A stretch of DNA of 17,341 nucleotides, from contig JAANXI010000075.1 in NCBI GenBank assembly GCA_018263365.1, positions 1 through 17,341 of the forward strand, written 5' to 3'. A program made the position numbers and the translations under genes. The notes under the pieces were generated by a model. It worked only from the letters and a program-made list of their open reading frames with translations, did not search any database and was not told where the DNA came from. The DNA comes from Fidelibacterota bacterium (GTDB lineage: Bacteria > Fidelibacterota > JAANXI01). Below, in pieces: positions 1-16,937 of this stretch (position 1 is its first letter; each line of letters begins with the position of its first letter).

Positions 1-128
1 TCTGTTGAGCGCGAAGGCTCCGTGAAATCCTCGACAGACCCTCCGGGTATGCCTTCGGTTTCCCAAAACCCTTTTCATCTCAACATCTTGGCACATCTCA
101 TCCACAACAATCGCTCAATTTAGGTGGA

Positions 129-152
129 AGTAAGATTAGGAGTAAGATTAAG
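129..152. repeat. 12-nt tandem direct repeat, two copies (AGTAAGATTAGG, AGTAAGATTAAG)
   Basis: Read directly: AGTAAGATTA at 129-138 and again at 141-150, each followed by a 2-nt spacer (GG, AG). It lies in non-coding DNA downstream of the - strand FemAB-like gene. Confidence 0.6.
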
Positions 153-162
153 ATACTACAAC

Positions 163-186
163 TTGAACACCCGAACACTTCAACAC
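163..186. repeat. 8-nt tandem repeat, three copies (TTGAACAC, CCGAACAC, TTCAACAC)
   Basis: Read directly: GAACAC at 165-170 and 173-178, CAACAC at 181-186, period 8. It abuts the stop codon (186-188, TAG on the - strand) of the FemAB-like gene. Confidence 0.5.
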
Positions 187-1154
187 TAAAGTACTTTGAT
201 AAACGTATCCCGGAACACACCGCTGGCTCCGAAGCTTTCCTTAAAGCGGCCCAGTCCGAAATTCGGTTCTTCGTTGACGGTGAAAATTCCGAAATCCAGG
301 TAGCGGAAATGTTGGTCAATAGCCCAGCGGATGATCTCGTAAAAGAGCAGGTTCACAGCGCGGTATTCCTGGTACTCCTCGTCGTGGCTGATGTAGAACG
401 CCAGCACCACATCCCGGTTGCAGATGAAGTTCACTACGCCTGCGATCATTTTCTCATCCAAATATGCGCCGAACAGGTTGATCTTATCGGGAAAAATTTG
501 AGAGAGGTTGATGAGTTCATCCAATGTATGCGTCGGCTGCACGTCGTGGCGAATCTTCAGATTCTTTTTCAGGATGTCGTAAAAGTCCGGGTATTCTTCG
601 GTCTGACGGACGATGACGCCCTCTTTCTTCGCTTTACGATAACTGCGCCGGGTGGAGGATCGAAATTTTCCAAGATTACCTTCGATGGAGGATTCCAGCG
701 TTAACATGCTGGATATCTCGCGTTTGAGATAATCGAAGCCGTGCTTGTACAGCGCAAAATCCAGATAATTTGTGATCCGCCGGTTGTAGATATACGGCGG
801 ATGGGTCATCACGATTCGCTCAACGTCTGTTTCTTCGGCTTCCCTGAGCAGCTCTTCCACCATGTTATAGGCGTCCCTGATTCTGATATCTTCCTGGTAG
901 ACAAAGCCGCCGTAGGAGGCGCCGCGGTGACTAAACAGTGTTGATTTCCCGTCGTAATCGATCCGGACCGCCGGAAACAGTGCATACGGTTTATCCTTTT
1001 TCAGGATCACATACGACTGATCGCGAAATCGATCGTTGGGATGGTAGGAGAGAAATTGGCGGGTGTGAAAAATGGTCCCGTTATTGGCGGACCAGACGAA
1101 CTCGTCCCACTCTTCGTCGTTTAGTGATTTTCCGGGAGCAAATTCTATAGCCAT
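186..1154 (-). CDS. FemAB-like / BioF2-like GNAT acyltransferase (putative aminoacyl- or peptidyl-transferase acting on cell-wall precursors)
   Basis: The 335-aa track ORF begins at a TTG (1193). The first ATG (1154) gives MAIEFAPGKSLNDEEWDEFV..., a typical N-terminus for this family. The C-terminal half (SSTRRSYRKAKKEGVIVRQTEE...FYDILKKNL...LFGAYLDEKMIAGVVNF...AFYISHDEEYQEYRAVNLLFYEIIRWAIDQHFRYLDFG) matches the FemAB / Acetyltransf_6 pattern from memory. No SD is seen for either start. Confidence 0.72.
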   Translation of the reverse strand: MAIEFAPGKSLNDEEWDEFVWSANNGTIFHTRQFLSYHPNDRFRDQSYVILKKDKPYALFPAVRIDYDGKSTLFSHRGASYGGFVYQEDIRIRDAYNMVEELLREAEETDVERIVMTHPPYIYNRRITNYLDFALYKHGFDYLKREISSMLTLESSIEGNLGKFRSSTRRSYRKAKKEGVIVRQTEEYPDFYDILKKNLKIRHDVQPTHTLDELINLSQIFPDKINLFGAYLDEKMIAGVVNFICNRDVVLAFYISHDEEYQEYRAVNLLFYEIIRWAIDQHFRYLDFGIFTVNEEPNFGLGRFKESFGASGVFRDTFIKVL

Positions 1155-1200
1155 AACTGCGCCAAAATTACTGGACGCAAGCGAGTGAAGCAACTGTTAG

Positions 1201-2580
<1,380 letters not shown>

Positions 2581-2585
2581 AACCT

Positions 2586-2972
2586 ATGTGGCCATTCTCC
2601 GGAGATAAAAAGAAAAAACGTAAGAAGCGTAAGAAAAAAGCAAAGCGCGCCCGTCGCACCGGCAACGGGCGCGCCAAGGCCTTTCTCTGGTGGCTGGTCG
2701 GTCTGTGTACCGCGCTTGTCTTCATTATGGTTTTCGTTCTGAGCGATCACGGGTTGTATGAACTCTGGCAGCTGAAAAAGGAACAAAAACTCATTGAACA
2801 ACATATCGAAGAGCTGCAGGAAGAGAATGCGGAATTAGCCGCCGAACGGGATCGCCTGAAGGAGGACAAGGAGTATATCGAAAAGCTGGCCCGAGAGCGT
2901 TATCGGATGGCAAAAGAGGGCGAAAAAGTATTCCGGGTCATTCCCAAATCCAATCAGGACACCTCGCAGTAG
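2586..2972 (+). CDS. ftsB: Septum formation initiator, FtsB/DivIC family, with a polybasic N-terminal tail
   Basis: 128 aa. It has a basic tail (DKKKKRKKRKKKAKRARR), a single TM helix (FLWWLVGLCTALVFIMVFVL), a coiled coil (LWQLKKEQKLIEQHIEELQEENAELAAERDRLKED), and the family-typical YIEKLARERYRMAKEGEKVF. It starts 5 nt after the eno stop. The eno-ftsB/divIC arrangement is a widely conserved synteny. Confidence 0.8.
   Translation: MWPFSGDKKKKRKKRKKKAKRARRTGNGRAKAFLWWLVGLCTALVFIMVFVLSDHGLYELWQLKKEQKLIEQHIEELQEENAELAAERDRLKEDKEYIEKLARERYRMAKEGEKVFRVIPKSNQDTSQ
2645..2674 (+). other. GC-rich 10-bp perfect inverted repeat (strong hairpin) inside the ftsB coding sequence
   Basis: GCGCGCCCGT (2645-2654) and ACGGGCGCGC (2665-2674) are exact reverse complements. 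After one C/A mismatch, two more inner pairs (2656-2657 with 2662-2663) close an ACCG tetraloop. There is no adjacent U-tract. Confidence 0.6.
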
Positions 2973-3060
2973 TTTCAATTTCCTTTTTATTCCGTATCCT
3001 GCTACATTTGTGTACTAACGGATTCAAATTACCCCGCAAACCAAGGGCTATAGAGGTATT

Positions 3061-4899
3061 GTGAAAGCCTTCCGCATCATTATTGTCGTTCCGGTGTTCA
3101 TGTGGGGAGCTTTAATTTTTGGACAGGCCGCCACCTCCGATTCCACTCTCTTTCGATTTCAGCAGCAAAACTCAACCTATCGGTGGTCGAATATCTTTCA
3201 GTATTCAGGCAGGATCAGCCAGCTTTCGTATGATGTCAGCAATTCGTTTATTAGCACGATGACGGAAGTACAGAGCGCGCAGAAGCAGTGGAAGGACGAC
3301 CAGCAATTCCGAGGACGATTATACGGTCCGATGCCCGGCAAATGGTTGTGGGAGCTCCAGGGGAACCTCCAGTGGTATAATGATGAGCAGTCGGGATATT
3401 TCAACGATTCCCGAATCGGGGCGGCTGCGCTGGGAATCAGGCGTGAGGCGCGGGCATTGAATTTTGGGGTTTCCAGCGGATACAAGCAGGATATTCGCCG
3501 GCAGTTTGTCGATACCGGTCCGACCCTTGCTGGAGAGCTCTCCCTGAACCGGGCGAATTGGGCGGGATACAAAACCTCCGGGATGCTGCAACTCCGTGGA
3601 GAGAACCTTGATACCCGGCAGAACCGGACGTATGTAACGCGATGGCTGGTTTCCAAGGAATTCGCCCCTGGCGTCAGTGATCACTTGTCAGTGAATGTCA
3701 GCCAGCGGAAACGCTCGTATTATCTGGCGTCCGGAATAGTTGAGGAGCGCAGTGAAACCCGGCAGCACCTGGAAAACCAGCTGCGGTATCGCGTATTTGA
3801 TCCGTTTTCAGTCCGGCTGAGTACTGAGTATTCCAGAGATCAAACGGCAATCGAGACGCCGTTTGTCGGATCAGCAGCGGTGCAGCAGAAGGACCGGGCA
3901 AACTACAATCTCCGGAATTCGCTGGGAATGTTTTTGGATACCGGACCGTTTCGGAATGAAATGTATATCCGGTATGAAGTGCAGCAAAACCTGTATAGGA
4001 CGGATGTCCGGGATACCGTTGTGGCTCCGTCGCAATTACGGAGACAAACTCCGCCCAACGACAACAGTAATACCCTGCAACTTGAAGGGAAGTCGCGTCT
4101 CGGAATCGGTTATCAGGATTCGCTTCAATTCACAGCATTGGCCATGCGGATGCAATACAATACGCCTGATTCCACTAATTACGACGACCGGGATGAAGTT
4201 CGCTATCGATATGGACTGGAATATATCCATCTATTTGCACCGGGATTCCGGTGGCGAACCGGCGGGGAAGTGTTGCTCAGTCATTATGCCTACCTGTACA
4301 GTCAGCGAAGTGCGGAAAATTACTGGAACCGGGTGTACCGCCTGTTTTCAGGCGTCCACTGGAAAAGACATCGCTGGGAATGGCATACGTCGGCTGAAGT
4401 CCTCGCCAATTATTACGATTACGAGTATGATGACCTGTTGCAGCAGGTGCGGAGTATTGCCTTCCGGCACATGGTATATCGCCAGCAGATTTACCATCCG
4501 CTTGGTCAGCGATGGCAGGGTCAATTCCGGTTCGATTTGCAACTGGAGGATCAGGGCAGACTGGATTGGACGGCATTCGTGGAAGAACTGATTCTGGAGC
4601 GTGAAATTGGTGAGATCGAATACAAAATACTGGTACCGATCGGTCAGACGCTGTCAGGTAACCTGGGCTATCGCTATCAGCGGCGGATTGATTGGCGTAT
4701 TAAGGAAGGCAAAAAATTTACGGCAGAGCGTATTTATACTCAGGGGCCGGTTTTTCAGGTCCGGTATCGCTCCCATAAACTCCCGGTGATCGTGTGGGAA
4801 GGGACGTTAATGGACGTCACTCAGGTAGATGTCCAACAGAGCAATACTACAAAATACCCTATTTCGCATTTACGTCTGCAGGCGTTTTGGCGCTGGTAA
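3061..4899 (+). CDS. Uncharacterised predicted outer-membrane beta-barrel protein (612 aa)
   Basis: GTG start, with GAGG 4 nt upstream. Signal peptide: MKAFRIIIVVPVFMWGALIFGQA/A. The sequence is rich in Y, W, R and Q with alternating hydrophobic patterns throughout. The C-terminus LRLQAFWRW ends in an aromatic residue with alternating hydrophobic positions, as in a BAM beta-signal. I recognise no family. Confidence 0.7.
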   Translation: MKAFRIIIVVPVFMWGALIFGQAATSDSTLFRFQQQNSTYRWSNIFQYSGRISQLSYDVSNSFISTMTEVQSAQKQWKDDQQFRGRLYGPMPGKWLWELQGNLQWYNDEQSGYFNDSRIGAAALGIRREARALNFGVSSGYKQDIRRQFVDTGPTLAGELSLNRANWAGYKTSGMLQLRGENLDTRQNRTYVTRWLVSKEFAPGVSDHLSVNVSQRKRSYYLASGIVEERSETRQHLENQLRYRVFDPFSVRLSTEYSRDQTAIETPFVGSAAVQQKDRANYNLRNSLGMFLDTGPFRNEMYIRYEVQQNLYRTDVRDTVVAPSQLRRQTPPNDNSNTLQLEGKSRLGIGYQDSLQFTALAMRMQYNTPDSTNYDDRDEVRYRYGLEYIHLFAPGFRWRTGGEVLLSHYAYLYSQRSAENYWNRVYRLFSGVHWKRHRWEWHTSAEVLANYYDYEYDDLLQQVRSIAFRHMVYRQQIYHPLGQRWQGQFRFDLQLEDQGRLDWTAFVEELILEREIGEIEYKILVPIGQTLSGNLGYRYQRRIDWRIKEGKKFTAERIYTQGPVFQVRYRSHKLPVIVWEGTLMDVTQVDVQQSNTTKYPISHLRLQAFWRW

Positions 4900-5061
4900 T
4901 TCTTCAAACGGGTCAATTTCGTATTGCAGTCTTTGGAAAAATAATTTACTATTACACATCGCTTCCGAACCGTTTTGCAATAACTGGTAGCCAAGTAGGG
5001 GCGGAAAAGTCACTATTATAATTCGCACTGAAACTGCTGAACCGAAATTGGAAGAGCGCGT

Positions 5062-5910
5062 ATGGATTTAGCCACTCTTTTTGGGTTGCTGGCTGGCGCC
5101 GGCCTGATAGTCACCGCAATTATTACCGCCGGGAACGCCGGCAGTCTCGCAGAATTCGTTCACCGCGAATCACTGATGATTGTGTTTGGTGGTACGATAG
5201 CGGCGACCCTCATTAACTATCCGCTGAAAGCGGTCATCGGGGTGTTTGGGGTGGTGAAAAACGCCTTTACCCGGCAACAGTCCGAATACCCGGAAGTCAT
5301 TTCCTATTTTGAGGAAGTATCGCGCAAGGTGTATGAGAAGGGATTGATCTCAATGGAAGAAGACCTCGATTCCATCGATGATCATTTTCTCCGGAACGGA
5401 TTGGCGCTGGCAATCAACGAGCGCAATCCCGACAATCTGCGGAATTATCTGGAACTGGAACTGAATAATATTCACCGGCGACATCGCCAGGGTGCGGAGA
5501 TCTTCTTCTATATGGGGCAGTATTCTCCTGCGTTTGGTATGCTGGGGACAATTATCGGGCTTATTATCATGATGAAAACCCAGATTTCCATGCCGGATGC
5601 CCAGGGTGCGCTCTCGGTGGCCTCGAATTTCAACTTGCAGCAGCAGTTCACCAATTTGTTGAACGGTATGGGATTGGCGCTTATCACAACCTTTTGGGGG
5701 GTGCTGCTGGCGAACCTGATCTTTTTACCCATCGGCGGAAAATTACAGCGCCGGTCGGAAGATGAGTTGATGATGAAGGAAATCATGATCGAGGGGATTA
5801 TGTGCCTTCATGCCAAGGATCATCCGCTGGTCGTTAAGGATAAGTTGCAGACGTTTATCCCGCAGCGGGAACGGGAACTCCTGGATAGCAATTCTTCCGG
5901 TAATCGATAA
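5062..5910 (+). CDS. motA: MotA/PomA-type stator protein (MotA/TolQ/ExbB proton-channel family)
   Basis: 282 aa. It aligns along its length with remembered B. subtilis and E. coli MotA. Features seen: two N-terminal TM helices, a cytoplasmic loop (EEVSRKVYEKGLISMEEDLDSIDDHFLRNGLALAI), a TM3 Pro (YSPAFGMLGTIIG), a TM4 Pro (NLIFLPIGGKLQRRS), and a C-terminal EIMIEGIMCL. It is longer than TolQ/ExbB and has 4 TM helices. Confidence 0.9.
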   Translation: MDLATLFGLLAGAGLIVTAIITAGNAGSLAEFVHRESLMIVFGGTIAATLINYPLKAVIGVFGVVKNAFTRQQSEYPEVISYFEEVSRKVYEKGLISMEEDLDSIDDHFLRNGLALAINERNPDNLRNYLELELNNIHRRHRQGAEIFFYMGQYSPAFGMLGTIIGLIIMMKTQISMPDAQGALSVASNFNLQQQFTNLLNGMGLALITTFWGVLLANLIFLPIGGKLQRRSEDELMMKEIMIEGIMCLHAKDHPLVVKDKLQTFIPQRERELLDSNSSGNR

Positions 5911-5929
5911 CTAACAGACATCAGTATTC

Positions 5930-6679
5930 ATGAGCTGGACGAGCGCAAACGGAAATAAAAACGGTAACGGCCATACCTCTGGCCGAAAGGCATCGCGCAA
6001 TGCCTGGCTGATCACCTACGCCGATATGGTGACGGTGCTCCTGACCTTCTTCGTGATGATTTTTATCTACATGAAAGAGGCGGAGAACAGCATCGATCGG
6101 TGGATCAACCATTTATTGAACCAAACCTATACCGAACTCACCCATTATGTGAATGAAAACAGTATCGAGGGCATTGAGGTTGATCGGGTTACCAAAGGAA
6201 TCCGAATCATATTGTCCAGCGGCGTGGTATTTGCCCCCGGATTTGCTGATTTGAAATCGAACGCGCTCCCCGTTCTTTCCGAAGTGGGGGCATTAATTAA
6301 CAATTCCACATTAGTGCATATCGAAGAAAATCCCGAATACGCAGAAATTTTTAGAAATTTGAGAAAACAGGGACGCGATTTAAAAGTCGATATTCGCGTC
6401 GAAGGCCATACCGACAGTGATCCGTATTATGGCCGCGAGTTTGAATCCAACTGGGAGCTTTCTGCAGCCAGAGCGTTGGCGGTTGTGAAATACATGACCG
6501 CCAGCACCGGGCTCGAGGAACAGAAATTCTCCGCACTTGGGTATGGAGAGTATCGCCCCATTGTGCCGAACACCAGTGAATCCAACAAGCAGCGTAATCG
6601 CCGCGTGGAGATCTATCTGGATGCGAATCTGGTGGCGACCAATGGTGTTAGTACTAGGACAGCCGATCGCCTTAACTAA
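5930..6679 (+). CDS. motB: MotB-type stator protein with an OmpA-like peptidoglycan-binding domain
   Basis: 249 aa, starting 19 nt after motA. It has the channel motif AWLITYADMVTVLLTFFVMIF with the conserved Asp. The OmpA-like domain is present: VFAPGFADL...VEGHTDSDP...SNWELSAARALAVVKYM...LGYGEYRPI...NRRVEIYL. Confidence 0.9.
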   Translation: MSWTSANGNKNGNGHTSGRKASRNAWLITYADMVTVLLTFFVMIFIYMKEAENSIDRWINHLLNQTYTELTHYVNENSIEGIEVDRVTKGIRIILSSGVVFAPGFADLKSNALPVLSEVGALINNSTLVHIEENPEYAEIFRNLRKQGRDLKVDIRVEGHTDSDPYYGREFESNWELSAARALAVVKYMTASTGLEEQKFSALGYGEYRPIVPNTSESNKQRNRRVEIYLDANLVATNGVSTRTADRLN

Positions 6680-6693
6680 ACGAGACTGACAAT

Positions 6694-7503
6694 ATGTGTT
6701 TCATCCGCCGGGGAGTGATCCTCTTGTGTGTGTCCATATTCTGTATGGCAGACATTGGCTATTCTGCGTTCGAGCGCCAACGGATTCAGGCGCTGCCCTG
6801 GAATACCAATGATTTGAGTCTCGTCAGCGCCCTCGCAAATAACCCGGGTCGACTGCAAAATATGGACAGAGCTGTCGTCGCCTCCGGATATACCAGGATT
6901 TTTAATCAGAAGGCCCTGCAGTCGGGGTACCTGTACTCTGCCCTTCCGTTATCTTTTGGAACTGTAGGTCTTGGTGTGGATTTTTTCGGAAATCAGGAGT
7001 ATGCGGAATCACAGTATATGGCCGGAATTGCCCGCCAATGGAACGAGAACGGTGCCTTTGGACTGCTGATCAGAGCATTCTCTCTCGATATCTCCAATTA
7101 CGGTAACGCAAACTCTCTTGCCATAGATGCCGGAACGAGCTGGCGCATCACAGAATCTCTCCAGTGGGAACTGGGCTACGGAAATCTCACTCAATCCACA
7201 ATCGGCCGTTCAAAAGAACCGTTACCCCAGCAAATTTTTTCCGCTGTGGAGTACAGTCCGAAAGATTATCTGTCGACCCGGTTGTCGGTCGTCCATGATC
7301 TCCGCTATCCGGTGCGTTACAGAGCCGGAGTCGGTTACGCACCGTTCACCTGGATCGAATTCGCAGCGCTCCTGAGTACCGAACCTGTCCGGGCGCAGAT
7401 TGGAACAACTATCACCTGGAAGATGATTCATGTCCAATACACGGCGACAATACATTCGGTGCTGCCTGTTACCCATCGTTTTGGTCTGCTGTTTGGTTTC
7501 TGA
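6694..7503 (+). CDS. Uncharacterised small predicted outer-membrane beta-barrel protein (269 aa)
   Basis: It starts 14 nt after motB. Signal peptide: MCFIRRGVILLCVSIFCMA/D. Amphipathic strand-like segments are present (GTVGLGVDFF, AFGLLIRAFSLDIS, SLAIDAGTSWRI, LQWELGYGN, YRAGVGYAP). The C-terminus HRFGLLFGF is a canonical beta-signal. I cannot assign a family; similarity to PorP/SprF, PorQ or GltA/B cannot be judged by eye. Confidence 0.65.
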   Translation: MCFIRRGVILLCVSIFCMADIGYSAFERQRIQALPWNTNDLSLVSALANNPGRLQNMDRAVVASGYTRIFNQKALQSGYLYSALPLSFGTVGLGVDFFGNQEYAESQYMAGIARQWNENGAFGLLIRAFSLDISNYGNANSLAIDAGTSWRITESLQWELGYGNLTQSTIGRSKEPLPQQIFSAVEYSPKDYLSTRLSVVHDLRYPVRYRAGVGYAPFTWIEFAALLSTEPVRAQIGTTITWKMIHVQYTATIHSVLPVTHRFGLLFGF

Positions 7504-9280
7504 TTGTTCTCTGTTTGCGCAGGATAATTTGCCTGCACGACTGGCGGATCAATTGGAAACCGTTGCAGACGAAGCGACCGTCTCCTCGCTGTACGAGGAT
7601 TATGTCCATCTCCATAACTATCCCATCACATGGGAGGAACTCGACCGGAAAACAGTGAAGCAAATTCCGGCGCTGACAGCCAGGGAACGAACTACCCTCC
7701 TGGAAGTTCGGAAAAAGCATCCACATTTAGATGAATGGACGGTGGTCGGGAAAAAGTTGCCAGCCGAGGCCATTGAAATTCTGAAATACACCGTCCGGCT
7801 TTCCCATGAGCCTGCGGTAAGAGGACATCTTCGCTGGCGGGGCAAATCATCCCGGGTTGAGGATTATCAATCCTACACTCGCCTCCGCTTTGCAAAGAGC
7901 AATACAATCAATGGAAGCGTCGTAACCGAACGCGATCCGGGAGAGCAGTCTGCCACTGACCATCTTGCAGGTGGAGTGGAATTCAGCAATCTGCCTGGGA
8001 TAGACAAATTGATTCTGGGTCAATTTCGCCTGGGATACGGACTGGGAGTCTCTTTCGGACCGGCGATGGGGCTGGCGAAGTCGAGCAGTGCGGTGAGTAA
8101 CGTCGACCAGTCGTATATGCGCCTTCGCATCAACGATTCGAGCCTGGAATCGCTGGGATTTACCGGCGCAGCTGCCAGAACGCATTATGGGAACCATCAT
8201 ATCCAGGCCGCTGGTGCATATACATCGAAAGATGGCTCCTGGAATGGTGACGAAATTGTGATTTCACAATCCGGTTTACACCTGACGGAAGGGAGTTTGC
8301 AGAGAAAAGACAACATCATTGAGCGCCTGGGAAACGGTGCGTACTGGTATGCCGGGGATCAAATTGATATAGGGATGCAATATTCTCAAATCCGCCGCAA
8401 GCGCGGGTCTGATGATGCGTGGCTAGAAAAATTCGTGTTCGGTAGCGCGTGGTTTGAAACCGATCACCTGTCGCATGAAACCGGGATAGATTTGTCGGGA
8501 AATCGGGCGTATCTAACGACAGTGAGATCGGCTATCGATGCGGTGGAAGTTGCCGTTGCTCATCGCTGGTATGACCCGCAATACCATGCTCCGTACGCCA
8601 GCGGATTCGGCGAATACTCCGGCACATCCAACGAAACCGGCTGGTATGCCGGGATTCAAGTCGATACGGATGCTGTGCGATGGAGCGGTTATATAGACGT
8701 TTTTCATGAAATTACGAATACCAAATCCCCACCGAAGGAGGGGACAGAATGGTTGCTACGCGCGGATTGGCGTCCCCGCCCCCGGATGCAGCTGTCCGGT
8801 TCCGTGAAAAACGAAACCAAAGAAGTGTCTGCCACTGATGCTGCGGATGGGGTAGAATTCGAGTTCAACATTTTACGCTGGAAACAGGAATATCAGGGAC
8901 AATGGCGCTATCGCTGGGATTCCGGATTCACTGCCGATGTCCGAACAGAGTATGTGACCGTGCACTATCCGGATCGTAGGTATACCGGAAATCAATGGGC
9001 GTATAAATTGACTTTTCCCATCCGTGCCCGGGATCGGCTCCAGGTTTTTCTGGTACCATACGATGTCGAGTCCAGCGATGCCTCGACTTATTATTTCGTG
9101 ATGCCGGTGACCGGGACGATGCAGCTGTTGCGGCAAACCGGCGCTGGCATGATAACCGGTGGGCAGATTCGGATGAATTTTTCCGAATCCGCGGAAATGA
9201 CCATTTTTTATTTGCAACGCCGCGCAGATAACTCAAAATTATCACATTCCGTAGCAGCGCAAATGGATATTGCTTTCTAA
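7430..9280 (+). CDS. Uncharacterised predicted outer-membrane protein: degenerate ComEA-like helix-hairpin-helix N-domain plus a large beta-barrel (616 aa)
   Basis: Signal peptide: MSNTRRQYIRCCLLPIVLVCCLVSDCSLFA/Q. Residues ~64-115 (ITWEELDRKTVKQIPALTARERTTLLEVRKKHPHLDEWTVVGKKLPAEAIEILKYTV) follow the ComEA/HhH spacing but lack the GIG hairpin. The remainder is rich in G, Y, W and R and strand-like (GQFRLGYGLGVSFG, GWYAGIQVD, WLLRADWRP). The C-terminus AAQMDIAF is a beta-signal. The gene overlaps the preceding one by 74 nt in another frame. Confidence 0.68.
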   Translation: MSNTRRQYIRCCLLPIVLVCCLVSDCSLFAQDNLPARLADQLETVADEATVSSLYEDYVHLHNYPITWEELDRKTVKQIPALTARERTTLLEVRKKHPHLDEWTVVGKKLPAEAIEILKYTVRLSHEPAVRGHLRWRGKSSRVEDYQSYTRLRFAKSNTINGSVVTERDPGEQSATDHLAGGVEFSNLPGIDKLILGQFRLGYGLGVSFGPAMGLAKSSSAVSNVDQSYMRLRINDSSLESLGFTGAAARTHYGNHHIQAAGAYTSKDGSWNGDEIVISQSGLHLTEGSLQRKDNIIERLGNGAYWYAGDQIDIGMQYSQIRRKRGSDDAWLEKFVFGSAWFETDHLSHETGIDLSGNRAYLTTVRSAIDAVEVAVAHRWYDPQYHAPYASGFGEYSGTSNETGWYAGIQVDTDAVRWSGYIDVFHEITNTKSPPKEGTEWLLRADWRPRPRMQLSGSVKNETKEVSATDAADGVEFEFNILRWKQEYQGQWRYRWDSGFTADVRTEYVTVHYPDRRYTGNQWAYKLTFPIRARDRLQVFLVPYDVESSDASTYYFVMPVTGTMQLLRQTGAGMITGGQIRMNFSESAEMTIFYLQRRADNSKLSHSVAAQMDIAF

Positions 9281-9286
9281 CTTGCT

Positions 9287-10813
9287 ATGGTATATATTCA
9301 TAAGAACTTATCGCATATGCTTAAGAAACTACTTCAAGTCATCGGTTTGGGAGTGTTACTTGGGTTTCTCGTGAATCCACAGGGAAACTTCGCCCAAAAG
9401 TCGCCGGGCGCTCAAACCGTGCGTGACTTTCAGACCATCAACAACATCAAATACCTCTCCGCTTCGAGATTCGCGGATGTTTTTAAGGTCAAAACCTATT
9501 ACAATCCGCAATCCCAGAAGATGATCCTTTATCTGCCGGAGCAGCGCCTGAAGTTTTCGGCGTTTAGCTCATACATTATGATTAACTCGGAGATATATCA
9601 TCTTCCGAATCTGGTCTTGCCAACAGACGGTGATTTGTTGATACCGGTAGCTTCGTTTACGCACATTATTCAGCCGCATCTTGGTATAACAATGCAGTAT
9701 GATGCCTCGGTTCCGAATCTCAGTGTAAATTATGAGCCGGTGAATATTACCGATCTGATCGTGGAGGAAAAGAAAAACGGCACGCTCATCCGCTTCCCGG
9801 TTACCCGGAAATTCCGGGAAACGGAGTATAAAGCCTGGCAGGGGAATGCCGGATGGTTTTATCTGACGGTCGCGGGGGGTTACATCAATGAAAAACGATT
9901 ATCGAAGGTTACCCCCAATGGGGTGATCCGAAAGATCGTGCCCATCCAGATGGATGGCTCCGTCCAGTTTTCGTTCCGGTTGCGGGAGCGCATCGAGGAC
10001 TATGAGGCCTACCAGAACTCCAATCCCCGGGAAATTGTCGTTAGTCTGCGAAGTCCTGCGTTTAACGGTTCGGTTGAGCTGAATGAAGCGCGGGATCGCT
10101 GGAAACTGGATCGCATCGTGCTGGATCCGGGCCATGGCGGGAAAGATCCCGGAGCGATTGGGTATGCCGGACTCCAGGAAAAAGATGTCGTGCTGGATGT
10201 AACTAAGCGGGTCGGCCGCCTGATTGAAAAAGAATTTCCGGATGTCGAGGTTATTTACACCAGAAAAACAGATAAATTCATCCCTCTCCGGGATCGGGCC
10301 CGGGTTGCCAACGAACAGAACGGCAAGCTTTTCATCAGTATCCACGCGAACAGTAACAAAAACAAAAGCGTGCGCGGATTCGAGACATATTTGCTTCGCC
10401 CCGGAAAGACCGAAGATGCCGTCGATGTGGCTGAGCGGGAAAATTCGGTGATCAAATTTGAGGAATCCACCGAGTATTACAAGCAGTATGACAATGAGCA
10501 GCTGATCCTGGCTACTATGGCCCAAAGCGCCTTTATGAAGGAGAGCGAAGATTTCGCCAGTCTTGTACAGCAGGGATTGAGCAGCGAGGTGCCCAGCCGG
10601 AGTCGCGGCGTAAAACAGGCCGGATTTTATGTGTTGGTCGGAGCCTCAATGCCGAACATTTTGGTGGAAACCGGATTTGTTTCCAATACGAGGGAAGGCA
10701 AAAATCTTGGTTGGGCTGAGTATCGGCAAAAAATTGCGGAAGGCATCTTTGAAGGGATTAAGGATTTCAAGTTGAAATACGACCAACAGGTCGTGGATCA
10801 AGCGTCCCTGTGA
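9287..10813 (+). CDS. N-acetylmuramoyl-L-alanine amidase (AMIN domain + Amidase_3; AmiB/AmiC-like)
   Basis: Catalytic domain motifs: IVLDPGHGGKDPGA, LFISIHANS, RGFETYLL, and KQAGFYVLVGASMPNILVETGFVSN. An AMIN-like domain lies upstream (ITDLIVEEKKNGTLIRFPV...WFYLTVAGG...VQFSFRL...REIVVSL). There is an N-terminal signal sequence. The start may be the ATG at 9317 (MLKKLLQVIGLGVLLGF) rather than 9287. Confidence 0.92.
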   Translation: MVYIHKNLSHMLKKLLQVIGLGVLLGFLVNPQGNFAQKSPGAQTVRDFQTINNIKYLSASRFADVFKVKTYYNPQSQKMILYLPEQRLKFSAFSSYIMINSEIYHLPNLVLPTDGDLLIPVASFTHIIQPHLGITMQYDASVPNLSVNYEPVNITDLIVEEKKNGTLIRFPVTRKFRETEYKAWQGNAGWFYLTVAGGYINEKRLSKVTPNGVIRKIVPIQMDGSVQFSFRLRERIEDYEAYQNSNPREIVVSLRSPAFNGSVELNEARDRWKLDRIVLDPGHGGKDPGAIGYAGLQEKDVVLDVTKRVGRLIEKEFPDVEVIYTRKTDKFIPLRDRARVANEQNGKLFISIHANSNKNKSVRGFETYLLRPGKTEDAVDVAERENSVIKFEESTEYYKQYDNEQLILATMAQSAFMKESEDFASLVQQGLSSEVPSRSRGVKQAGFYVLVGASMPNILVETGFVSNTREGKNLGWAEYRQKIAEGIFEGIKDFKLKYDQQVVDQASL

Positions 10814-11655
10814 GCACACCCAAATCAGTAGCGCCGCTGGGCGTGTTCGATTCCGGCCTTGGCGGTCTTACCGTTGTTCGGCAAATCCAGAAAGTGTATC
10901 CGCATCTTTCCATCATTTATTACGGCGATACGGCGCGTGTGCCGTACGGTACCAAAAGCCCGCAGACCGTCACGCATTTCTCCCGGCAGATTATCGAATT
11001 CCTGATTGCGCAGGATATTCAGGCGATTATGGTAGCGTGTAATACGGCCTCCGCAACTGCGGTGCCTGTGCTCAAAGATGAGTACCCTGTTCCGATTCAC
11101 GGCGTGGTTGAGCCCGGTGCGAAAGCCGCGTTTCACGCTACACAGACCGGGAAAATCGGCGTCATCGGGACGAATTCAACCATTCGCTCCAGCGTATATA
11201 AATCCGCATTGAAACGTTTGGATGAATCCCTCGAGGTTACGGTACAGCCCTGCCCGCTCTTTGTACCGATTGTGGAGGAGGGTTGGGAGACCCACCAGGT
11301 TGCGGAAATCACCGTTAGGGAGTACCTGGCTCAGATGATCGAGCAGAAAATTGATACGCTGATTCTGGGCTGTACGCACTATCCGCTGCTGAGCGAAACG
11401 CTCCGCAAAGTGTTACCGGATTCTATCACTATTATCGACAGCGGCGTTGCCGCAGCCAACGCGGTGGAAAATATTGTTGAATCCCCAATGGAAGTTATTC
11501 CTAAGTACAAATATTACGTGAGTGATACCCCGGAACGTTTTTCGGAGATCGGTACACGGTTTTTGGGGCATCCGATGGAGAATGTCTACTACTTTGATGT
11601 GGACCGCCCGTGGACTGCGGCCGATATTCAGTCCGCACCAAAAGTGACGCCATGA
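10810..11655 (+). CDS. murI: Glutamate racemase
   Basis: Motifs: GVFDSGLGGLTV, YYGDTARVPYGTKS, VACNTASA, LGCTHYPLL. The GTG start overlaps the amidase stop (GTGA, 4-nt overlap). Confidence 0.95.
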   Translation: MSTPKSVAPLGVFDSGLGGLTVVRQIQKVYPHLSIIYYGDTARVPYGTKSPQTVTHFSRQIIEFLIAQDIQAIMVACNTASATAVPVLKDEYPVPIHGVVEPGAKAAFHATQTGKIGVIGTNSTIRSSVYKSALKRLDESLEVTVQPCPLFVPIVEEGWETHQVAEITVREYLAQMIEQKIDTLILGCTHYPLLSETLRKVLPDSITIIDSGVAAANAVENIVESPMEVIPKYKYYVSDTPERFSEIGTRFLGHPMENVYYFDVDRPWTAADIQSAPKVTP

Positions 11656-12923
11656 GCGAATATCAGAATACGCTGCAGTATCTTTTCAACCTTCAAAATC
11701 GCGGGATCAAACTGAGTCTTGATCGGGTCCTCTTGTTCCGGAAGGCACTCGGTTTTCCCGATCGGGCATTTGACAGCTTTCACATCGCCGGGACAAACGG
11801 TAAGGGATCAACGGCCCACTTCCTGGATGCCATGCTGCGGACTGCGCCGATAAAGGTGGGGTTGTACACTTCGCCTCATCTGGTACGGTTCAATGAGCGC
11901 ATTCGTGTGAACGGCGCTACAATCCCGGATGATTTTATTGTGAGATTTACCCGGCAATGGCGGGATTTTATTGACGAATACGAATTGACCTTCTTTGAGA
12001 CGACCACGCTCATGGCCTTGGATTATTTCCGGGAGCAGGAAGTAGACGTGGCCATACTCGAAACAGGTCTCGGCGGGCGGCTGGATGCCACGAACATTGT
12101 TACGCCGATTGTTTCTCTTATCACTTCCATCGGGCTGGAGCATACGGATATGTTGGGGGAGACGATAGCTGATATTGCCCGGGAAAAAGCCGGAATCATG
12201 AACCCGAATGTCCCTTGTGTTATCGGAACCATGCCCCCGGAAGCCGCACTTGTGATGGCGGAACGGGCGGGGGAACTTACCTTGCAACTCATTTCGGCAA
12301 TCAATCTGCTGCATCCGTCGAATATCAGTGTCATCCCTGACCACGGAACAAAATTTGATCTGATGGTAAAGGGCGAAAAGCACCACCTTCGGCTGAACAT
12401 GGTGGGCCGACAGGCGGCAATGAACGCCGCGTATGCTGTCGCTGCCTTGGAGGTTCAGGATCACTACGCTCTTGATTGGCCGGAGCAAAAAAGAGCCGTT
12501 GAACAGGTGACAATCCCCGGGCGTCTCCAGAGGCTTCAGGAGTCTCCTGCGGTGTATTATGATGTCGCTCATAATTACGACGGCTTTGTCCAGCTGATGC
12601 AAAATCTGCGGGCCCTTCATCCTGAGCGCGATTTTCGGTTTTTGCTCAGTCTGAGTGAATTGAAGGATATTTCCCGTCTGCACGAAGCGTTGCCAGCGGA
12701 GGCATCGCTGGGAATTATGACGATCGACGATATGCCAATGCACGGTCTGGCAGCTTGGGAAAAGGCCTTGCCCGCTCGCGAAATATCGGATTACGGCCGC
12801 AATGCAGAAGCGGGAAAACAGTGGCGATCAGACCTGAGGAATTCGGACATTGGAATCATCGCCGGGAGTCACTACATTGCGCGATATGTTTACGAGGGTT
12901 TTAACTTTTCCCTTGACTCATAA
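11652..12923 (+). CDS. folC: Bifunctional folylpolyglutamate synthase / dihydrofolate synthase
   Basis: Motifs: HIAGTNGKGST, GLYTSPHLVRFNERIRVNG, and ETGLGGRLDATN...SIGLEHTDMLG...IAREKAGI. The start was trimmed to the ATG at 11652, which overlaps the murI stop (ATGA). The product then begins MSEYQNTLQYLFNL. Confidence 0.93.
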   Translation: MSEYQNTLQYLFNLQNRGIKLSLDRVLLFRKALGFPDRAFDSFHIAGTNGKGSTAHFLDAMLRTAPIKVGLYTSPHLVRFNERIRVNGATIPDDFIVRFTRQWRDFIDEYELTFFETTTLMALDYFREQEVDVAILETGLGGRLDATNIVTPIVSLITSIGLEHTDMLGETIADIAREKAGIMNPNVPCVIGTMPPEAALVMAERAGELTLQLISAINLLHPSNISVIPDHGTKFDLMVKGEKHHLRLNMVGRQAAMNAAYAVAALEVQDHYALDWPEQKRAVEQVTIPGRLQRLQESPAVYYDVAHNYDGFVQLMQNLRALHPERDFRFLLSLSELKDISRLHEALPAEASLGIMTIDDMPMHGLAAWEKALPAREISDYGRNAEAGKQWRSDLRNSDIGIIAGSHYIARYVYEGFNFSLDS

Positions 12924-12940
12924 CACTGATGTTTTAAATT
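12913..12940 (+). promoter_or_regulatory. Possible sigma70 promoter for rho (TTGACT-16 nt-TAAATT)
   Basis: TTGACT at 12913-12918 lies within the last codons of folC. A 16-nt spacer follows, then TAAATT at 12935-12940. This would give a ~110-nt A/C-rich leader before the rho ATG at 13060. It is a motif match only. Confidence 0.3.
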
Positions 12941-13059
12941 CTTTTCACCAAGCATCCAGATGATTTGTATAAAAAGACAGAATCGTAACTAAAAATCGCC
13001 AACCACCGCAAGAGTTCATTTTCCGATAAATACCAAAAACTCCTAAAAACGGTAAAACC

Positions 13060-14325
13060 ATGAGTGCTACGAAGAGATTAGACATTAACGATCTGCAATC
13101 GATGAATATCAAAGAGCTTACGAAAATGGCTCAGGATTTGCAGATCCCCGGGTATTCCGGACTGAAGAAACAAAATTTGATTTTCAAGATCCTGGAGGCA
13201 CAGGCGGAACAGGAAGGCCTGATTTTTTCCAAAGGGGTGCTGGAAATTCTGGAAGACGGCTACGGATTTTTGCGGTCTCCCGATTACAATTATACCCCCG
13301 GCCCGGACGATATTTACATTTCCCCGTCGCAGATTAAGCGTTTTGGCCTGCAAACAGGTCACGTGGTGTCCGGACAGATTCGGCCCCCCAAGGATGATGA
13401 GCGCTTCTTTGCGCTGCTGCGGGTAGAGGCGATCAACTTTATGCGGCCCGATGAGATTAAAAATGTGGTGCTGTTCGATAATCTCACGCCGCTCTATCCA
13501 GAGGAACGTTTTCAGTTGGAGCATGATCCCAAGGATTATTCCACACGGATCGTCGACCTGATTTCGCCGGTTGGCAAGGGCCAGCGTGGTTTGATCGTGG
13601 CTCAACCCAAAACCGGAAAAACCATTCTGCTGCAGAAATTGGCGAATGCCATTCTTACGAACCACCCGGAATCGACACTGATTGTACTGCTTATCGATGA
13701 GCGGCCGGAAGAGGTCACGGATATGCAACGCTCAGTGGATGCGGAAGTGGTCAGTTCGACATTTGATGAGCCACCGGACCGACACGTACAGGTCGCCAAC
13801 ATGATTCTGGAAAAAGCGAAGCGTATGGTCGAATTCGGCGAGGATGTGGTGATTCTGCTGGATAGTATTACCCGGTTGGCCCGTGCTCATAACGCGGTCA
13901 TCCCGCACTCCGGCCGTATTTTGTCCGGTGGTCTGGATTCCAATGCACTCCACAAACCGAAGCGCTTTTTCGGGGCCGCGCGGAACGTGGAAGAGGGCGG
14001 CAGTTTAACCATTATCGCCACGGCACTGGTTGAAACCGGCAGCCGGATGGATGACGTGATCTTTGAAGAGTTTAAAGGCACGGGTAACATGGAGCTCGTA
14101 CTTGATCGCGAACTCAGTGACCGCCGCACCTTCCCGGCCATCGATATTGACCGTACCGGTACGCGCCGCGAAGAACTGTTGCTGAGCGAAACGGAACTGG
14201 CCCGCGTCTGGATCCTGCGGAAATTCCTGCAGAATATGTCCGTAGTCGAATCTATGGAATTCGTGCTGGACAAAATGAAGGGTACGAAGAACAACGACGA
14301 ATTCCTCAAGTCAATGAATCAATAA
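13060..14325 (+). CDS. rho: Transcription termination factor Rho
   Basis: 421 aa. The N-terminal domain is present ([78 protein letters not shown]), along with Walker A (AQPKTGKT), [13 protein letters not shown] and ITRLARAHN. Confidence 0.97.
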
Positions 14326-14337
14326 CTTTGGTGTACC

Positions 14338-14359
14338 GGGCTCAGAACGTTCTGGGCCC
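14338..14359 (+). terminator. 22-nt palindrome / hairpin 13 nt downstream of the rho stop (possible terminator or operator)
   Basis: GGGCTCAGAACGTTCTGGGCCC pairs at 10 of 11 positions as DNA; the remaining position (42/55) is a G-U wobble in RNA. There is no adjacent U-tract, and the nearest T-rich run is ~50 nt downstream. It is therefore not a textbook intrinsic terminator. Confidence 0.35.
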
Positions 14360-14494
14360 AGTGCGGAGTTATTGTCCGATTTCCAGTTTCCTGAATAGTC
14401 CTGTACCTCTGATTTTTCTTTTTCGGTTTTCATACTTGATATTCAATAGAGGTGAAACGAACTTTAGCAATCTATGCCGAAACAGGAGGGAACC

Positions 14495-15682
14495 ATGAAA
14501 TTTGCACCGCGAATTGATCGCGTTCAACCGTCAATGACAATGGCTGTCATTGAAAAAGCTGCAACCCTGCGTGCGCAGGGTATCGATGTGGTGGATTTTG
14601 GCGCCGGTGAGCCGGATTACGGCACTCCGGAGAATATCCGCGATGCCGCCAAACGGGCACTAGATGCCGGATACACCCGTTACACTAAGAACACGGGAAT
14701 CGATCCATTGCGCGAAGCCATTTGTGTTAAACTCAAACGGGATAACGGTCTCGAGTATTCCCCGGATCAGATTATCGTATCCAACGGAGCCAAGCACGTC
14801 TTGTTCAACACAATGATGGCCACGCTGGGGGAGGGCGACGAGATCATCATTTTTTCGCCGTACTGGGTAACCTTTCCGGAGATGGCCAAACTCACCGGCG
14901 CAAATCCGGTGATCATCCGGACCACCGAAGCCAATTGTTTCGAACCGTCCCTGGATGAGGTTCGCAAGCATATTACCGAAAATACCCGCGCCATTCTGAT
15001 GAATTCGCCATCCAATCCCAGCGGCATGGTGTATTCTGAGGAGACCATCGCCGGACTTGCCGATATCTGCATAAAAAATGAACTCTATCTGATCTCTGAC
15101 GAATGTTATGAGAGCATTACCTATGGCGCTGAGGCCATTTCGCCGGCGCGGTATGAGGATGAATCGAAATTTGTGGTTACTGTCCAGTCGATGTCGAAAT
15201 CCTATGCGATGACTGGTTGGCGGGTCGGCTACGCAGCCGGAAACAAGGCACTCATAGGCAACATGGCGAAGATCCAGAGCCAAAGCGCATCCCATGCCAA
15301 CTCCATCGCTCAACATGCCGCAGTGGAAGGCCTGAACGGCGATCAGTCATTTTTGAAATCAATGGTAGCCGAATATGAAAAACGCCGTGATTATGTGCTG
15401 GGCCGGTTGAACGATATGCCGGGTATCACCAGCGGAAAACCGGAAGGCGCTTTTTATGCGTTTCCCAACGTCAGCAGTTATTATGGAAGTTCCTATGACG
15501 GCAAGAAGATCACCGACTCCGGAAGCATTACGGATTTCATTTTGGAAGAAGCCAACGTGGCAGTGGTGCCTGGCGGAGGCTTTGGCAACGACGAAAATAT
15601 TCGCATCAGCTATGCAACATCCATGGAGGAACTTGAACGGGGACTCGATCGTATTGAGTCTGCGCTGCAAAAATTGAATTAA
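14495..15682 (+). CDS. aspC: Aspartate aminotransferase (class I PLP-dependent aminotransferase, subgroup Ib-like)
   Basis: It resembles remembered Thermus-type AspAT throughout: GEPDYGTPENI, YTKNTGI, NGAKHVLF, SPYWVTFPEM, NSPSNPSGMVY, and the PLP lysine motif SMSKSYAMTGWRVGY, then IRISYATS. The start was trimmed to the ATG at 14495, preceded by AGGAGG (14484-14489). Confidence 0.9.
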   Translation: MKFAPRIDRVQPSMTMAVIEKAATLRAQGIDVVDFGAGEPDYGTPENIRDAAKRALDAGYTRYTKNTGIDPLREAICVKLKRDNGLEYSPDQIIVSNGAKHVLFNTMMATLGEGDEIIIFSPYWVTFPEMAKLTGANPVIIRTTEANCFEPSLDEVRKHITENTRAILMNSPSNPSGMVYSEETIAGLADICIKNELYLISDECYESITYGAEAISPARYEDESKFVVTVQSMSKSYAMTGWRVGYAAGNKALIGNMAKIQSQSASHANSIAQHAAVEGLNGDQSFLKSMVAEYEKRRDYVLGRLNDMPGITSGKPEGAFYAFPNVSSYYGSSYDGKKITDSGSITDFILEEANVAVVPGGGFGNDENIRISYATSMEELERGLDRIESALQKLN

Positions 15683-15703
15683 GGAAGAAGAAGGAGTAAC
15701 AGA

Positions 15704-15952
15704 ATGAAAAAAGGTATTCATCCCGAATACAAAATGGTAACTGTCACCTGTTCATGCGGAAACACGTTCGAAACCCGCTCCGCATCCGGTGATCTGAAAG
15801 TGGAACTTTGCTCGGAATGTCATCCGTTTTTCACCGGAAAGCAGAAGATGATCGACTCCGCCGGACGTATTGATAAGTTCCGCGCACGCTACGGTGAAAA
15901 AGACGATAAGAAGAAGGATAAGGAAGCAGAAAAGGAAACCGCAGAGGAGTAA
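15704..15952 (+). CDS. rpmE: 50S ribosomal protein L31, zinc-binding type A, with a charged C-terminal extension
   Basis: [26 protein letters not shown]...[13 protein letters not shown]...[11 protein letters not shown]. All four Cys are present (CSC and CSEC). AAGGAG lies upstream. The tail [18 protein letters not shown] extends beyond the usual ~70-aa length. Confidence 0.95.
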
Positions 15953-15983
15953 AGTGCGGTTCTCCCTGTTTTACATTTTGCTG

Positions 15984-16937
15984 ATGGCCAAGTCCACTAT
16001 TCTGGTCGGCGGTCAGGCTGTCATTGAGGGCGTGATGATGCGCGTCCCCGGCGGCTATGCCACGGCGGTGCGCCGCAAAGACGGTTCGATGACGATTGCC
16101 AATCACGACTACGAGCCGCTGACGCAGCGTTATCGCTGGGCCAAGTGGCCGATTGTGCGTGGGGTGATCGCGCTGTTCGAGTCCATGAAAATCGGCATGG
16201 GCACGCTGCAGTGGTCGGCAGATATTGCGATGCGGGACGAGGAAGAAAACCCTGATGATTATAAAGAGAGCAAACTGGCGACATTCCTGACGACTGCGTT
16301 TGCTCTGTTGCTAGGCATCGGACTATTCCTGGTGGCGCCGCTCTGGATTACAACGAAAATCCTTAATATTGAGCAGGACATGTTGGCATTTAATCTGGTT
16401 GCCGGCGGCTTTCGTATTGCTTTTTTCCTGATTTACCTCATTATTATTTCCCGTATGGAAGATGTGAGGCGCCTGTTTGAGTATCATGGCGCGGAGCACA
16501 AAGTGGTGTTCAATTTCGAATCCGGGCTGGATTTATCCTGGGAGAACACCAAGAAGTTCACCACATTTCATCCGAGATGCGGTACGAGTTTTTTGTTCAT
16601 CGTGTTGATCTTAGCCATCCTGTTATACGCCCTCCTGGATACTGGCCTGATGGCCGCGCTTGGTACTATCACGTTGCCGATCCGCGTGGTCGGGCATCTT
16701 GCGTTTCTACCGCTGGTTGCCGGGATCTCGTATGAGTTCATTAAACTCACCAGTGCCAATATGGATAAAGCATTCTACCGTGGACTAGCCAAACCGGGAT
16801 TATGGCTCCAACGGATTACCACGAGTGAACCGGATGAAAGCCAGGTTGAAGTGGCCATCACCGCTTTGAAAAACGCCTTCGGAGAACAGTTCGACGAATT
16901 CGCCGGCAAAGAATATGTGGCGGAGGCGGTAGCATGA
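15984..16937 (+). CDS. DUF1385 family integral membrane protein (YqhQ-like), function unknown
   Basis: MAKSTILVGGQAVIEGVMMR... is the family's N-terminal signature. The EYHGAEHKV motif and several TM helices are present. The track start at 15870 overlaps rpmE in another frame and was trimmed to the ATG at 15984; GTG at 15954 is an alternative. The stop overlaps the prfA ATG (ATGA). Confidence 0.85.
   Translation: MAKSTILVGGQAVIEGVMMRVPGGYATAVRRKDGSMTIANHDYEPLTQRYRWAKWPIVRGVIALFESMKIGMGTLQWSADIAMRDEEENPDDYKESKLATFLTTAFALLLGIGLFLVAPLWITTKILNIEQDMLAFNLVAGGFRIAFFLIYLIIISRMEDVRRLFEYHGAEHKVVFNFESGLDLSWENTKKFTTFHPRCGTSFLFIVLILAILLYALLDTGLMAALGTITLPIRVVGHLAFLPLVAGISYEFIKLTSANMDKAFYRGLAKPGLWLQRITTSEPDESQVEVAITALKNAFGEQFDEFAGKEYVAEAVA

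Follow-up and report, generated by a model that had tools for sequence, protein, structure and literature searches.

The 17,341-nt stretch analysed here in full (the window; JAANXI010000075.1 positions 1-17,341, forward strand, assembly GCA_018263365.1) is from a Candidatus Marinimicrobia bacterium, a member of the phylum also named Marinisomatota, SAR406, Fidelibacterota or Neomarinimicrobiota, and carries a flagellar-type motA-motB stator gene pair among genes for three predicted outer-membrane (OM) beta-barrels (P612, P269 and P616), an N-acetylmuramoyl-L-alanine amidase, MurI and FolC (Table 1). With moderate confidence, we interpret the pair as a Marinimicrobia-specific stator that is separable from the barrel-amidase module and is more likely to be non-flagellar than flagellar. 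The original prediction, made by a model from the sequence of the window, had proposed that MotAB may energise a trans-envelope complex that contains the three barrels and is linked to division or wall remodelling, or to surface transport or motility. Most of what it described was confirmed, and its interpretation found partial support. The most valuable result lies outside that frame, in a phylum-wide MotA(B) lineage that looks to be orphan and has a conserved periplasmic insertion. Proteins of the window were identical to proteins on Logan metagenome contigs and in Candidatus Marinimicrobia (Neomarinimicrobiota) metagenome-assembled genome (MAG) entries at NCBI, where the window MotA is held as MBS1271650.1 under the annotation 'Chemotaxis protein PomA'.

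Among the best 120 of 5582 MotA matches, identity to the window MotA ranged from 51 to 100%, and the names attached to them were Marinimicrobia, Neomarinimicrobiota, Fidelibacterota, FCB group or an unclassified 'bacterium'. A pelagic MotA cluster was very abundant, with 537 members and Tara samples among them, which leans towards a non-flagellar reading. Phylogenetic analysis by neighbour joining placed 123 Marinimicrobia-type MotAs alongside 78 from other phyla, the majority of which have a FliI-like gene 6-9 kb upstream, and recovered 121 of the 123 sequences as one monophyletic clade on the longest stem of any large clade (0.29), with an additional stem of 0.19 leading to the five-member subclade of the window. 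The periplasmic loop between transmembrane helices (TM) 3 and 4 had a median length of 30 aa in Marinimicrobia compared to 13 aa in the MotAs of other phyla, and contained a conserved insertion of ~17 aa that has no counterpart in those 78 proteins, with F190 (119/123), D191 (112/123), F196 (110/123) and both L199 and L200 (121/123) widely maintained across the phylum. A second departure was confined to the subclade of the window and concerned the cytoplasmic torque-interface motif, residues 87-99 (SRKVYEKGLISME), where Tyr91-Glu92 replace a conserved Arg-Lys (V-Y-E-K-G) and Glu99 is retained. Columns 91 and 99 we take to be E. coli R90 and E98, residues that contact FliG. Column 91 was Arg in 116 of the 123 Marinimicrobia sequences and in 77 of the 78 others, followed by Lys or Arg, and was Tyr solely in the five-member subclade, with column 99 remaining Glu in 120 of the 123; the resulting phylum motif, A-R-K-x-G-x-x-S-L-E, matches the flagellar A-R-R-E-G-L-L-A-L-E. 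The loop insertion across the phylum and the Arg-to-Tyr change in the window's subclade are candidate adaptations to a non-flagellar job.

Neither gene is disrupted, and strong purifying selection acts on both, with a ratio of nonsynonymous to synonymous substitution rates (dN/dS) for motA of ~0.025, equal to that of enolase and indicative only, since dS was saturated. The window MotA (282 aa; PF01618, 3e-24) aligned over its full length (residues 1-273) to flagellar MotA/PomA structures in the PDB, which spanned E-43 to E-15, the best being 6ysf (5.6e-43), with 8ucs, 9lu9 and 8bri also falling between E-43 and E-33. Its best NCBIfam models were MotP, PomA and MotA (2e-60 to 8e-50), and all seven MotA-type models fell below their equivalog cutoffs (the best, MotP, reached 204 bits where 394 are required). 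The canonical channel features that had been read from the sequence of the pair were borne out, comprising the TM3 and TM4 prolines of MotA (P156 and P223, kept in 121/123 and 123/123 relatives) and, in MotB, the Asp of ITYADMVT (D32, nt 6023-6025), the plug (MotB_plug, 1.5e-10) and the OmpA-like domain (OmpA, 4.5e-16). The best NCBIfam models for MotB were MotD, MotS and MotB.

Twelve related Marinimicrobia lineages were compared, the window's own included, of which ten carry motA. In all ten, motA adjoins eno-ftsB, and no flagellar or chemotaxis gene was detected in ~20 kb around it. The original statement that no fli, flg, flh or che gene is present was upheld for the window, where no such family matched any large open reading frame (ORF), and the lack of linkage between the flagellar-type pair and flagellar genes holds in all 12 lineages examined. 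The order P612-motA-motB-P269-P616-amidase-murI (type a) was shared by the window, L089/L100 and L084/L085, and the same order with motAB cleanly absent and a 250-nt gap was found in L086/L087 (type b), with P269-P616-amidase-murI located directly after ftsB in L101 (type f). A further group encoded motA-P269-like-P616-like-amidase-(murI)-folC without motB and without P612 (type c; L090-92, L104, L105 and L106). In the remaining loci (type d/e; L004, L093-95 and L098/99), motA-motB and a gene designated X192 are convergent on ftsB-eno, with no barrels or amidase nearby.

The order motA-(motB)-P269-P616-amidase was therefore observed in seven of the 12 lineages, four of which lack motB, and across these seven the identity of P269 and P616 has fallen to 21-25%. 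Barrels and amidase were kept without motAB at the locus in two lineages (L086 and L101), and motA-motB was kept without barrels at the locus in three (L004, L093 and L098). As the stator and the barrel-amidase module each exist alone, the barrels are not obligate partners, and the order described for the window does recur in the seven lineages but is broken in these five. The flanking genes (FemAB-like, eno and ftsB on one side; folC, rho, rpmE (L31) and DUF1385 on the other) were equally syntenic, so that gene order is weak evidence of shared function. The simpler view that the barrel linkage is not conserved was also discarded, being overturned by four more lineages with motA-P269-P616-amidase. 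A metagenome scan with the P616 alignment returned four loci, L101 among them.

Two further features of these loci bear on the composition of the stator. X192 (L093:11549-12133, L004:11544-12119, L098:11553-12131) follows motA-motB as a conserved third gene in pelagic and Fidelibacterota-labelled lineages. Its product, ~192 aa long and 47-67% identical from one lineage to another, bears a signal peptide and matches DUF4352 weakly (E 3.7e-5); the gene is missing in the clade of the window, and the protein is a candidate for a stator partner in the periplasm. In the four divergent lineages without motB (L090:10001-11718, L104:9001-10688, L105:9001-10829, L106:9001-10819), no motB was found within 9-10 kb of the intact motA, and the gene after motA encodes a PorV/Q-like barrel. 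Either motB is located elsewhere in these genomes or MotA has another partner.

Judged from family membership, motA and motB would encode a working ion-driven stator of the MotA5MotB2 type, in which ion flow through MotB Asp32 would turn the MotA ring around a peptidoglycan-anchored MotB dimer. The pair belongs to a Marinimicrobia-specific clade that has probably been inherited vertically and resided beside eno-ftsB since early in the phylum. In the lineage of the window it is probably co-transcribed with a separate and older envelope module, which would comprise a PorV/PorQ-like barrel, a protein combining a helix-hairpin-helix (HhH) domain with a barrel, an AmiA/C-type amidase, MurI and FolC, with P612 appearing to be a later, clade-specific insertion. 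The partner driven by the stator would more likely be non-flagellar than flagellar.

All three barrel proteins have signal-peptide-like N-termini and the C-terminal ends first reported for them (AFWRW in P612, LLFGF in P269 and MDIAF in P616), and the view that they belong to no known family remains apt for P612 and P616, for which no Pfam or NCBIfam match was obtained, but not for P269. By itself, P269 gave no match to PorV/PorQ models at E<=0.01 and no direct profile hidden Markov model match. A phmmer search with P269 returned 1424 representative relatives, and in an alignment of 45 members (P269 and 44 phmmer homologues, E 1e-119 to 1e-16) matches were obtained to NF033709 PorV_fam (34), T9SS_PorQ (27) and PorVQ2 (17). 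Because its homologues match these models, P269 is, by transitive homology, assigned to the PorV/PorQ superfamily as a divergent barrel, an assignment that does not imply a role in the type IX secretion system (T9SS). ComEA-type HhH domains were fused to the barrel in ten of the 45 aligned members (HHH_3, 6e-45). P616, which always directly follows P269 in the loci and has six detectable homologues, was modelled as a helical N-domain and a large barrel (predicted local distance difference test (pLDDT) 69) with generic barrel matches (BtuB, TM-score ~0.4). Its residues 65-108 aligned to the HhH part of the fused P269 relatives (hhalign E 0.012, probability 3.6%) and its L090 orthologue matched ComEA at E 0.02, which weakly suggests a ComEA/HhH-like N-domain. 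With fused P269 relatives on the one hand and a weakly HhH-like start of P616 after P269 on the other, the combination of barrel and HhH appears to recur as one gene or two.

P612 is restricted in distribution. Its 14 homologues lie essentially all within Marinimicrobia, and among the compared loci it was confined to the window's clade and L086, being absent from L090, L101, L104, L105 and L106, the last of which has no gene at all in that position. The AlphaFold model of P612 (pLDDT 87.8) contains a signal peptide and ~28 beta-strands, with no plug, and Foldseek searches against the PDB returned generic large barrels, led by MtrB (6r2q_B, TM-score 0.47) and followed by SlpA, TonB-dependent transporters and LptD. 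Genes for a multihaem cytochrome (Cytochrome_C554/C7-like, 448 aa) were observed ~5 kb upstream of the cluster in L086 (3553-4899) and L089 (3014-4360); their occurrence alongside the match of P612 to MtrB, a porin-cytochrome sheath, is probably coincidental. P612 and P616 were considered as possible paralogues and rejected as such (hhalign probability 4.9%).

The amidase matched Amidase_3 (7.9e-53) on residues 277-492, and its PDB matches, AmiA (8c2o, 2e-33) and AmiC (4bin, 7e-33), covered the catalytic part only, with the alignment to E. coli AmiC beginning at residue 260. The AMIN domain ascribed to it in the original prediction was not recovered by Pfam at E<=10 on residues 1-278, and AmiC aligned by its catalytic domain only. 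The N-terminal 278 aa instead gave a weak Cu_amine_oxidN1 match (E 0.022), as did those of the L106 orthologue. On sequence grounds, the enzyme is best described as an AmiA/AmiC-type catalytic domain joined to an N-terminal domain other than AMIN.

Published data on motility in the phylum were also considered. All ten sampled pelagic Marinisomatota MAGs were scored zero for fliM, fliNY and cheA/B/R (PMC10359470, Supplementary Dataset 3), Marinimicrobia-dominated communities have been described as non-motile (PMC10359470), and the sole isolate of the phylum, Fidelibacter multiformis, is non-motile (PMC11652737). Two phylum-wide comparative genomics papers contained no mention of flagella, motility or chemotaxis, and our literature search returned no statement on flagella for the window's lineage. 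Overall, this indirect evidence suggests that the phylum is largely non-flagellated. In six of the ten MAGs, fliG was scored as one alongside zero scores for fliM, fliNY and che genes (PMC10359470). These entries were not counted as showing FliG, since fliG is also scored as one for a Nanoarchaeota MAG in that dataset, and they are probably cross-hits to the related MgtE N-domain (MgtE_N). A genuine FliG-like protein would be in keeping with the torque motif conserved in MotA.

It is possible, though well short of likely, that the pair is an ordinary flagellar stator, with the flagellum encoded elsewhere in the genome, motAB lodged in a housekeeping synteny block and the barrels and amidase as unrelated neighbours. 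Unlinked motAB pairs occur in many bacteria, and the best family and structure matches of the pair are all flagellar (MotA, MotP and PomA; MotB, MotS and MotD). Several points favour this reading or weigh against the interpretation that we prefer. The nearest MotAs outside the phylum are ~40% identical and mostly have a FliI-like ATPase gene 6-9 kb upstream; the Arg-Lys...Glu torque motif is retained in most of the phylum (116-120 of 123 members), as it would be in a stator driving FliG; and the clean loss of motAB in two lineages (L086 and L101) and of motB in four would also fit dispensable motility genes. 'Flagellar proteins' were reported in most mercury-methylating Marinimicrobia MAGs (PMC8163782), a claim that motAB annotated as 'flagellar' could explain, no flagellar gene being listed in the supplements of that study. 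The ten pelagic MAGs span five families at 52-85% completeness and may differ from those carrying the motAB loci, the flagellar-gene negative for the window's lineage refers to the locus rather than the whole genome, and the gene order recurring in seven lineages could reflect a real functional coupling that we have underweighted.

Conversely, a flagellar role is at odds with the lack of any flagellar or chemotaxis gene around motA in 10/10 motA-bearing lineages, with the missing fliM, fliN and che genes of sampled pelagic relatives (PMC10359470) and with the non-motile isolate (PMC11652737). The proteins themselves also depart from flagellar stators through loss of the conserved Arg in the window's subclade, through a conserved periplasmic insertion unmatched in the MotAs of other phyla and through the four lineages that have motA but no adjacent motB.

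Beyond a stator that is Marinimicrobia-specific and probably non-flagellar, it is conceivable, if unlikely, that the motor drives a process in the envelope together with the products of its probable operon, the PorV/Q-like barrel, the HhH-barrel and the amidase for cell separation. Such a drive could act via the conserved periplasmic helix of the rotating MotA ring or via a cytoplasmic partner on the retained torque face, and its outputs might include septal or OM remodelling or the handling of peptidoglycan fragments. The stronger version put forward in the original prediction, an integrated motor-barrel-amidase machine, is disfavoured and in our view quite unlikely. The tight spacing from motA to folC, the persistence of motA-(motB)-P269-P616-amidase in seven lineages despite barrels at ~21-25% identity, the membership of P269 in a family of T9SS OM partners, T9SS being itself driven by a 5:2 motor, and the conserved periplasmic loop of MotA, which could be an interface, are all consistent with it. 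The existence of each part without the other and the clade-specific distribution of P612 nonetheless speak against a single obligate machine. No TonB/TolA-like adaptor is present, characterised stators work through the cytoplasmic face of MotA, synteny is equally strong for the neighbouring housekeeping genes and the amidase lacks a detectable AMIN domain. Two of the outcomes that the original prediction had named as refuting it are partly borne out, in that the linkage is unconserved in several relatives and a known family includes one of the barrels (P269).

That the pair is instead a Zorya-type anti-phage system, or a motor of the TolQR/ExbBD type misread as MotAB, is extremely improbable and was effectively ruled out by the NCBIfam, PDB and PADLOC matches: ZorB models do match MotB (2.6e-21), reflecting generic MotB homology, but the ZorA match (E 0.0033) covers ~60 residues only (157-217), the 282-aa MotA has no long ZorA tail, ZorC and ZorD genes and any other PADLOC match are missing, no TolQ/ExbB family or structure occurred among the MotA matches at E<=0.01, and family searches of the window found no tolA, tolB, pal or tonB neighbours.

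Rotary motors of 5:2 stoichiometry (MotAB, ExbBD, TolQR, GldLM and ZorAB) are known to drive a wide range of dissimilar machines, and the discovery of each further output has been notable. The window pair resembles the flagellar stators MotAB, PomAB and MotPS in its 4-TM MotA with a large cytoplasmic TM2-TM3 domain and TM3/TM4 prolines, in the channel Asp, plug and OmpA-like domain of MotB and in its full-length alignment to MotA/PomA structures. It differs in falling below NCBIfam equivalog cutoffs, in the ~17-aa loop insertion and in the Tyr-Glu at the torque interface of its subclade, and the Marinimicrobia pair differs further by its lack of linkage to flagellar genes and by the absence of an adjacent motB in several lineages. 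Like Tol-Pal, the locus places an inner-membrane 5:2 motor and an OmpA-like peptidoglycan-binding element beside division and peptidoglycan-processing genes, and a functional analogy might be drawn on that basis, but the motor is of MotAB rather than TolQR type, TolA, TolB and Pal are missing and the peptidoglycan-binding domain is on MotB itself.

The resemblance to T9SS (PorV/PorQ with GldLM/PorLM) consists of the superfamily membership of P269, the 5:2 motor and the occurrence in the phylum of cargo with a T9SS C-terminal domain. Unlike in T9SS, P269 itself matches no PorV/PorQ model, the adjacent motor is MotAB and not GldLM, no SprA, PorU, PorZ or GldKN is encoded nearby and fusion to ComEA-type HhH domains occurs in many relatives of P269. 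The cargo gene, observed in L098 (7748-9715) from a Fidelibacterota MAG, lies divergently just upstream of motA and encodes 655 aa with a Por_Secre_tail C-terminal domain, indicating that the phylum uses type IX secretion. The myxobacterial Agl-Glt and Nfs machines share the general plan of a proton-motive-force-driven motor with several OM barrels, but their motors are TolQR-type (AglRQS) and not MotAB-type, the barrels here persist without the motor, and no Glt or Nfs family was among the Pfam/NCBIfam matches of P612, P269 and P616, with no search using dedicated Glt models made. ExbBD-TonB transport likewise sets large OM barrels near a 5:2 motor, and both P616 and P612 can be fitted loosely onto 22-strand transporters (TM-score 0.36-0.44), but neither a plug domain nor a TonB box was identified, TonB is missing and the motor is not ExbBD.

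If the pair is truly non-flagellar, a complete flagellar-type stator, with its torque domain, would have been kept for a different purpose throughout a phylum that is abundant in the ocean, and if the envelope drive holds, it would add a new output module to the 5:2 motor family. Clear sequence handles on these possibilities are provided by the motif of the periplasmic loop, by the switch from Arg to Tyr and by the natural lineages without motB, motAB or barrels. MAG surveys commonly count motAB as 'flagellar motility', which may explain at least one published flagellar claim for the phylum. Should these genomes encode flagella, the finding would be ordinary.

Table 1. Genes and MotA motifs of the window, with positions in nt.
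Feature	Position	Strand	Basis or remark
FemAB/GNAT-like gene	186-1193	-	Acetyltransf_6
eno	1231-2580	+	longest ORF
ftsB (DivIC-family septum formation initiator)	2586-2972	+	PF04977, 6.6e-23
P612 (signal peptide, predicted OM beta-barrel)	3061-4899	+	no Pfam/NCBIfam match; AlphaFold model
motA (4-TM flagellar-type stator subunit)	5062-5910	+	PF01618
MotA residues 87-99 (cytoplasmic torque-interface motif)	5320-5358	+	
MotA residues 172-196 (extended periplasmic TM3-TM4 loop)	5575-5649	+	motif F-D/N-[VIL]-A-x-[KQ]-F-x-x-L-L
motB (TM helix with Asp32, plug, OmpA-like peptidoglycan-binding domain)	5930-6679	+	MotB_plug, OmpA
P269 (signal peptide, putative divergent PorV/PorQ-family (FadL-like) OM barrel)	6694-7503	+	transitive homology
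P616 (signal peptide, helical N-domain, predicted large beta-barrel)	7430-9280	+	model
N-acetylmuramoyl-L-alanine amidase	9287-10813	+	Amidase_3 (PF01520)
murI (glutamate racemase)	10810-11655	+	TIGR00067, 5.7e-70, above cutoff
folC	11652-12923	+	TIGR01499, 5e-97; start as called in L001, longest ORF from 11610
rho, aminotransferase, rpmE, DUF1385 gene (after folC)		+	

The layout of the window was as originally described, with ftsB, a DivIC-family gene, just upstream of the cluster and spacings of 19, 14, -74, 6, -4 and -4 nt from motA onward, folC being the final gene of the tightly spaced run and the start of murI overlapping the stop of the amidase gene by 4 nt. The -74 overlap between P269 and P616 requires that P616 start at 7430, where gene callers picked later starts; three observations support the earlier start, namely its own signal peptide, a signal peptide that aligns with it in P0020, a homologue from Bacteroidetes, and the recurrence of this overlap in L089. 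A promoter and terminator scan returned counts equal to the shuffled expectation and so did not inform operon boundaries.

Minor variations were observed within the compared loci, including a Mur-ligase gene in place of murI (L105:14304-15755), an FGE-sulfatase-domain gene inserted before the amidase gene (L090:13681-14490) and a Cas6b-like gene between rho and the aminotransferase gene (L004:6290-7258). The longest enolase ORF (449 aa) begins at TTG, and gene callers and orthologues favour a start 72 nt downstream (425 aa), so that its first 24 codons are probably not translated. The FemAB/GNAT-like gene stands divergently beside eno in the window and in most of the other Marinimicrobia loci examined. 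Peptidyl transferases of the FemAB type are uncommon in diderm bacteria, and there may be a connection with the atypical peptidoglycan biology that has been described in the sole isolate of the phylum.

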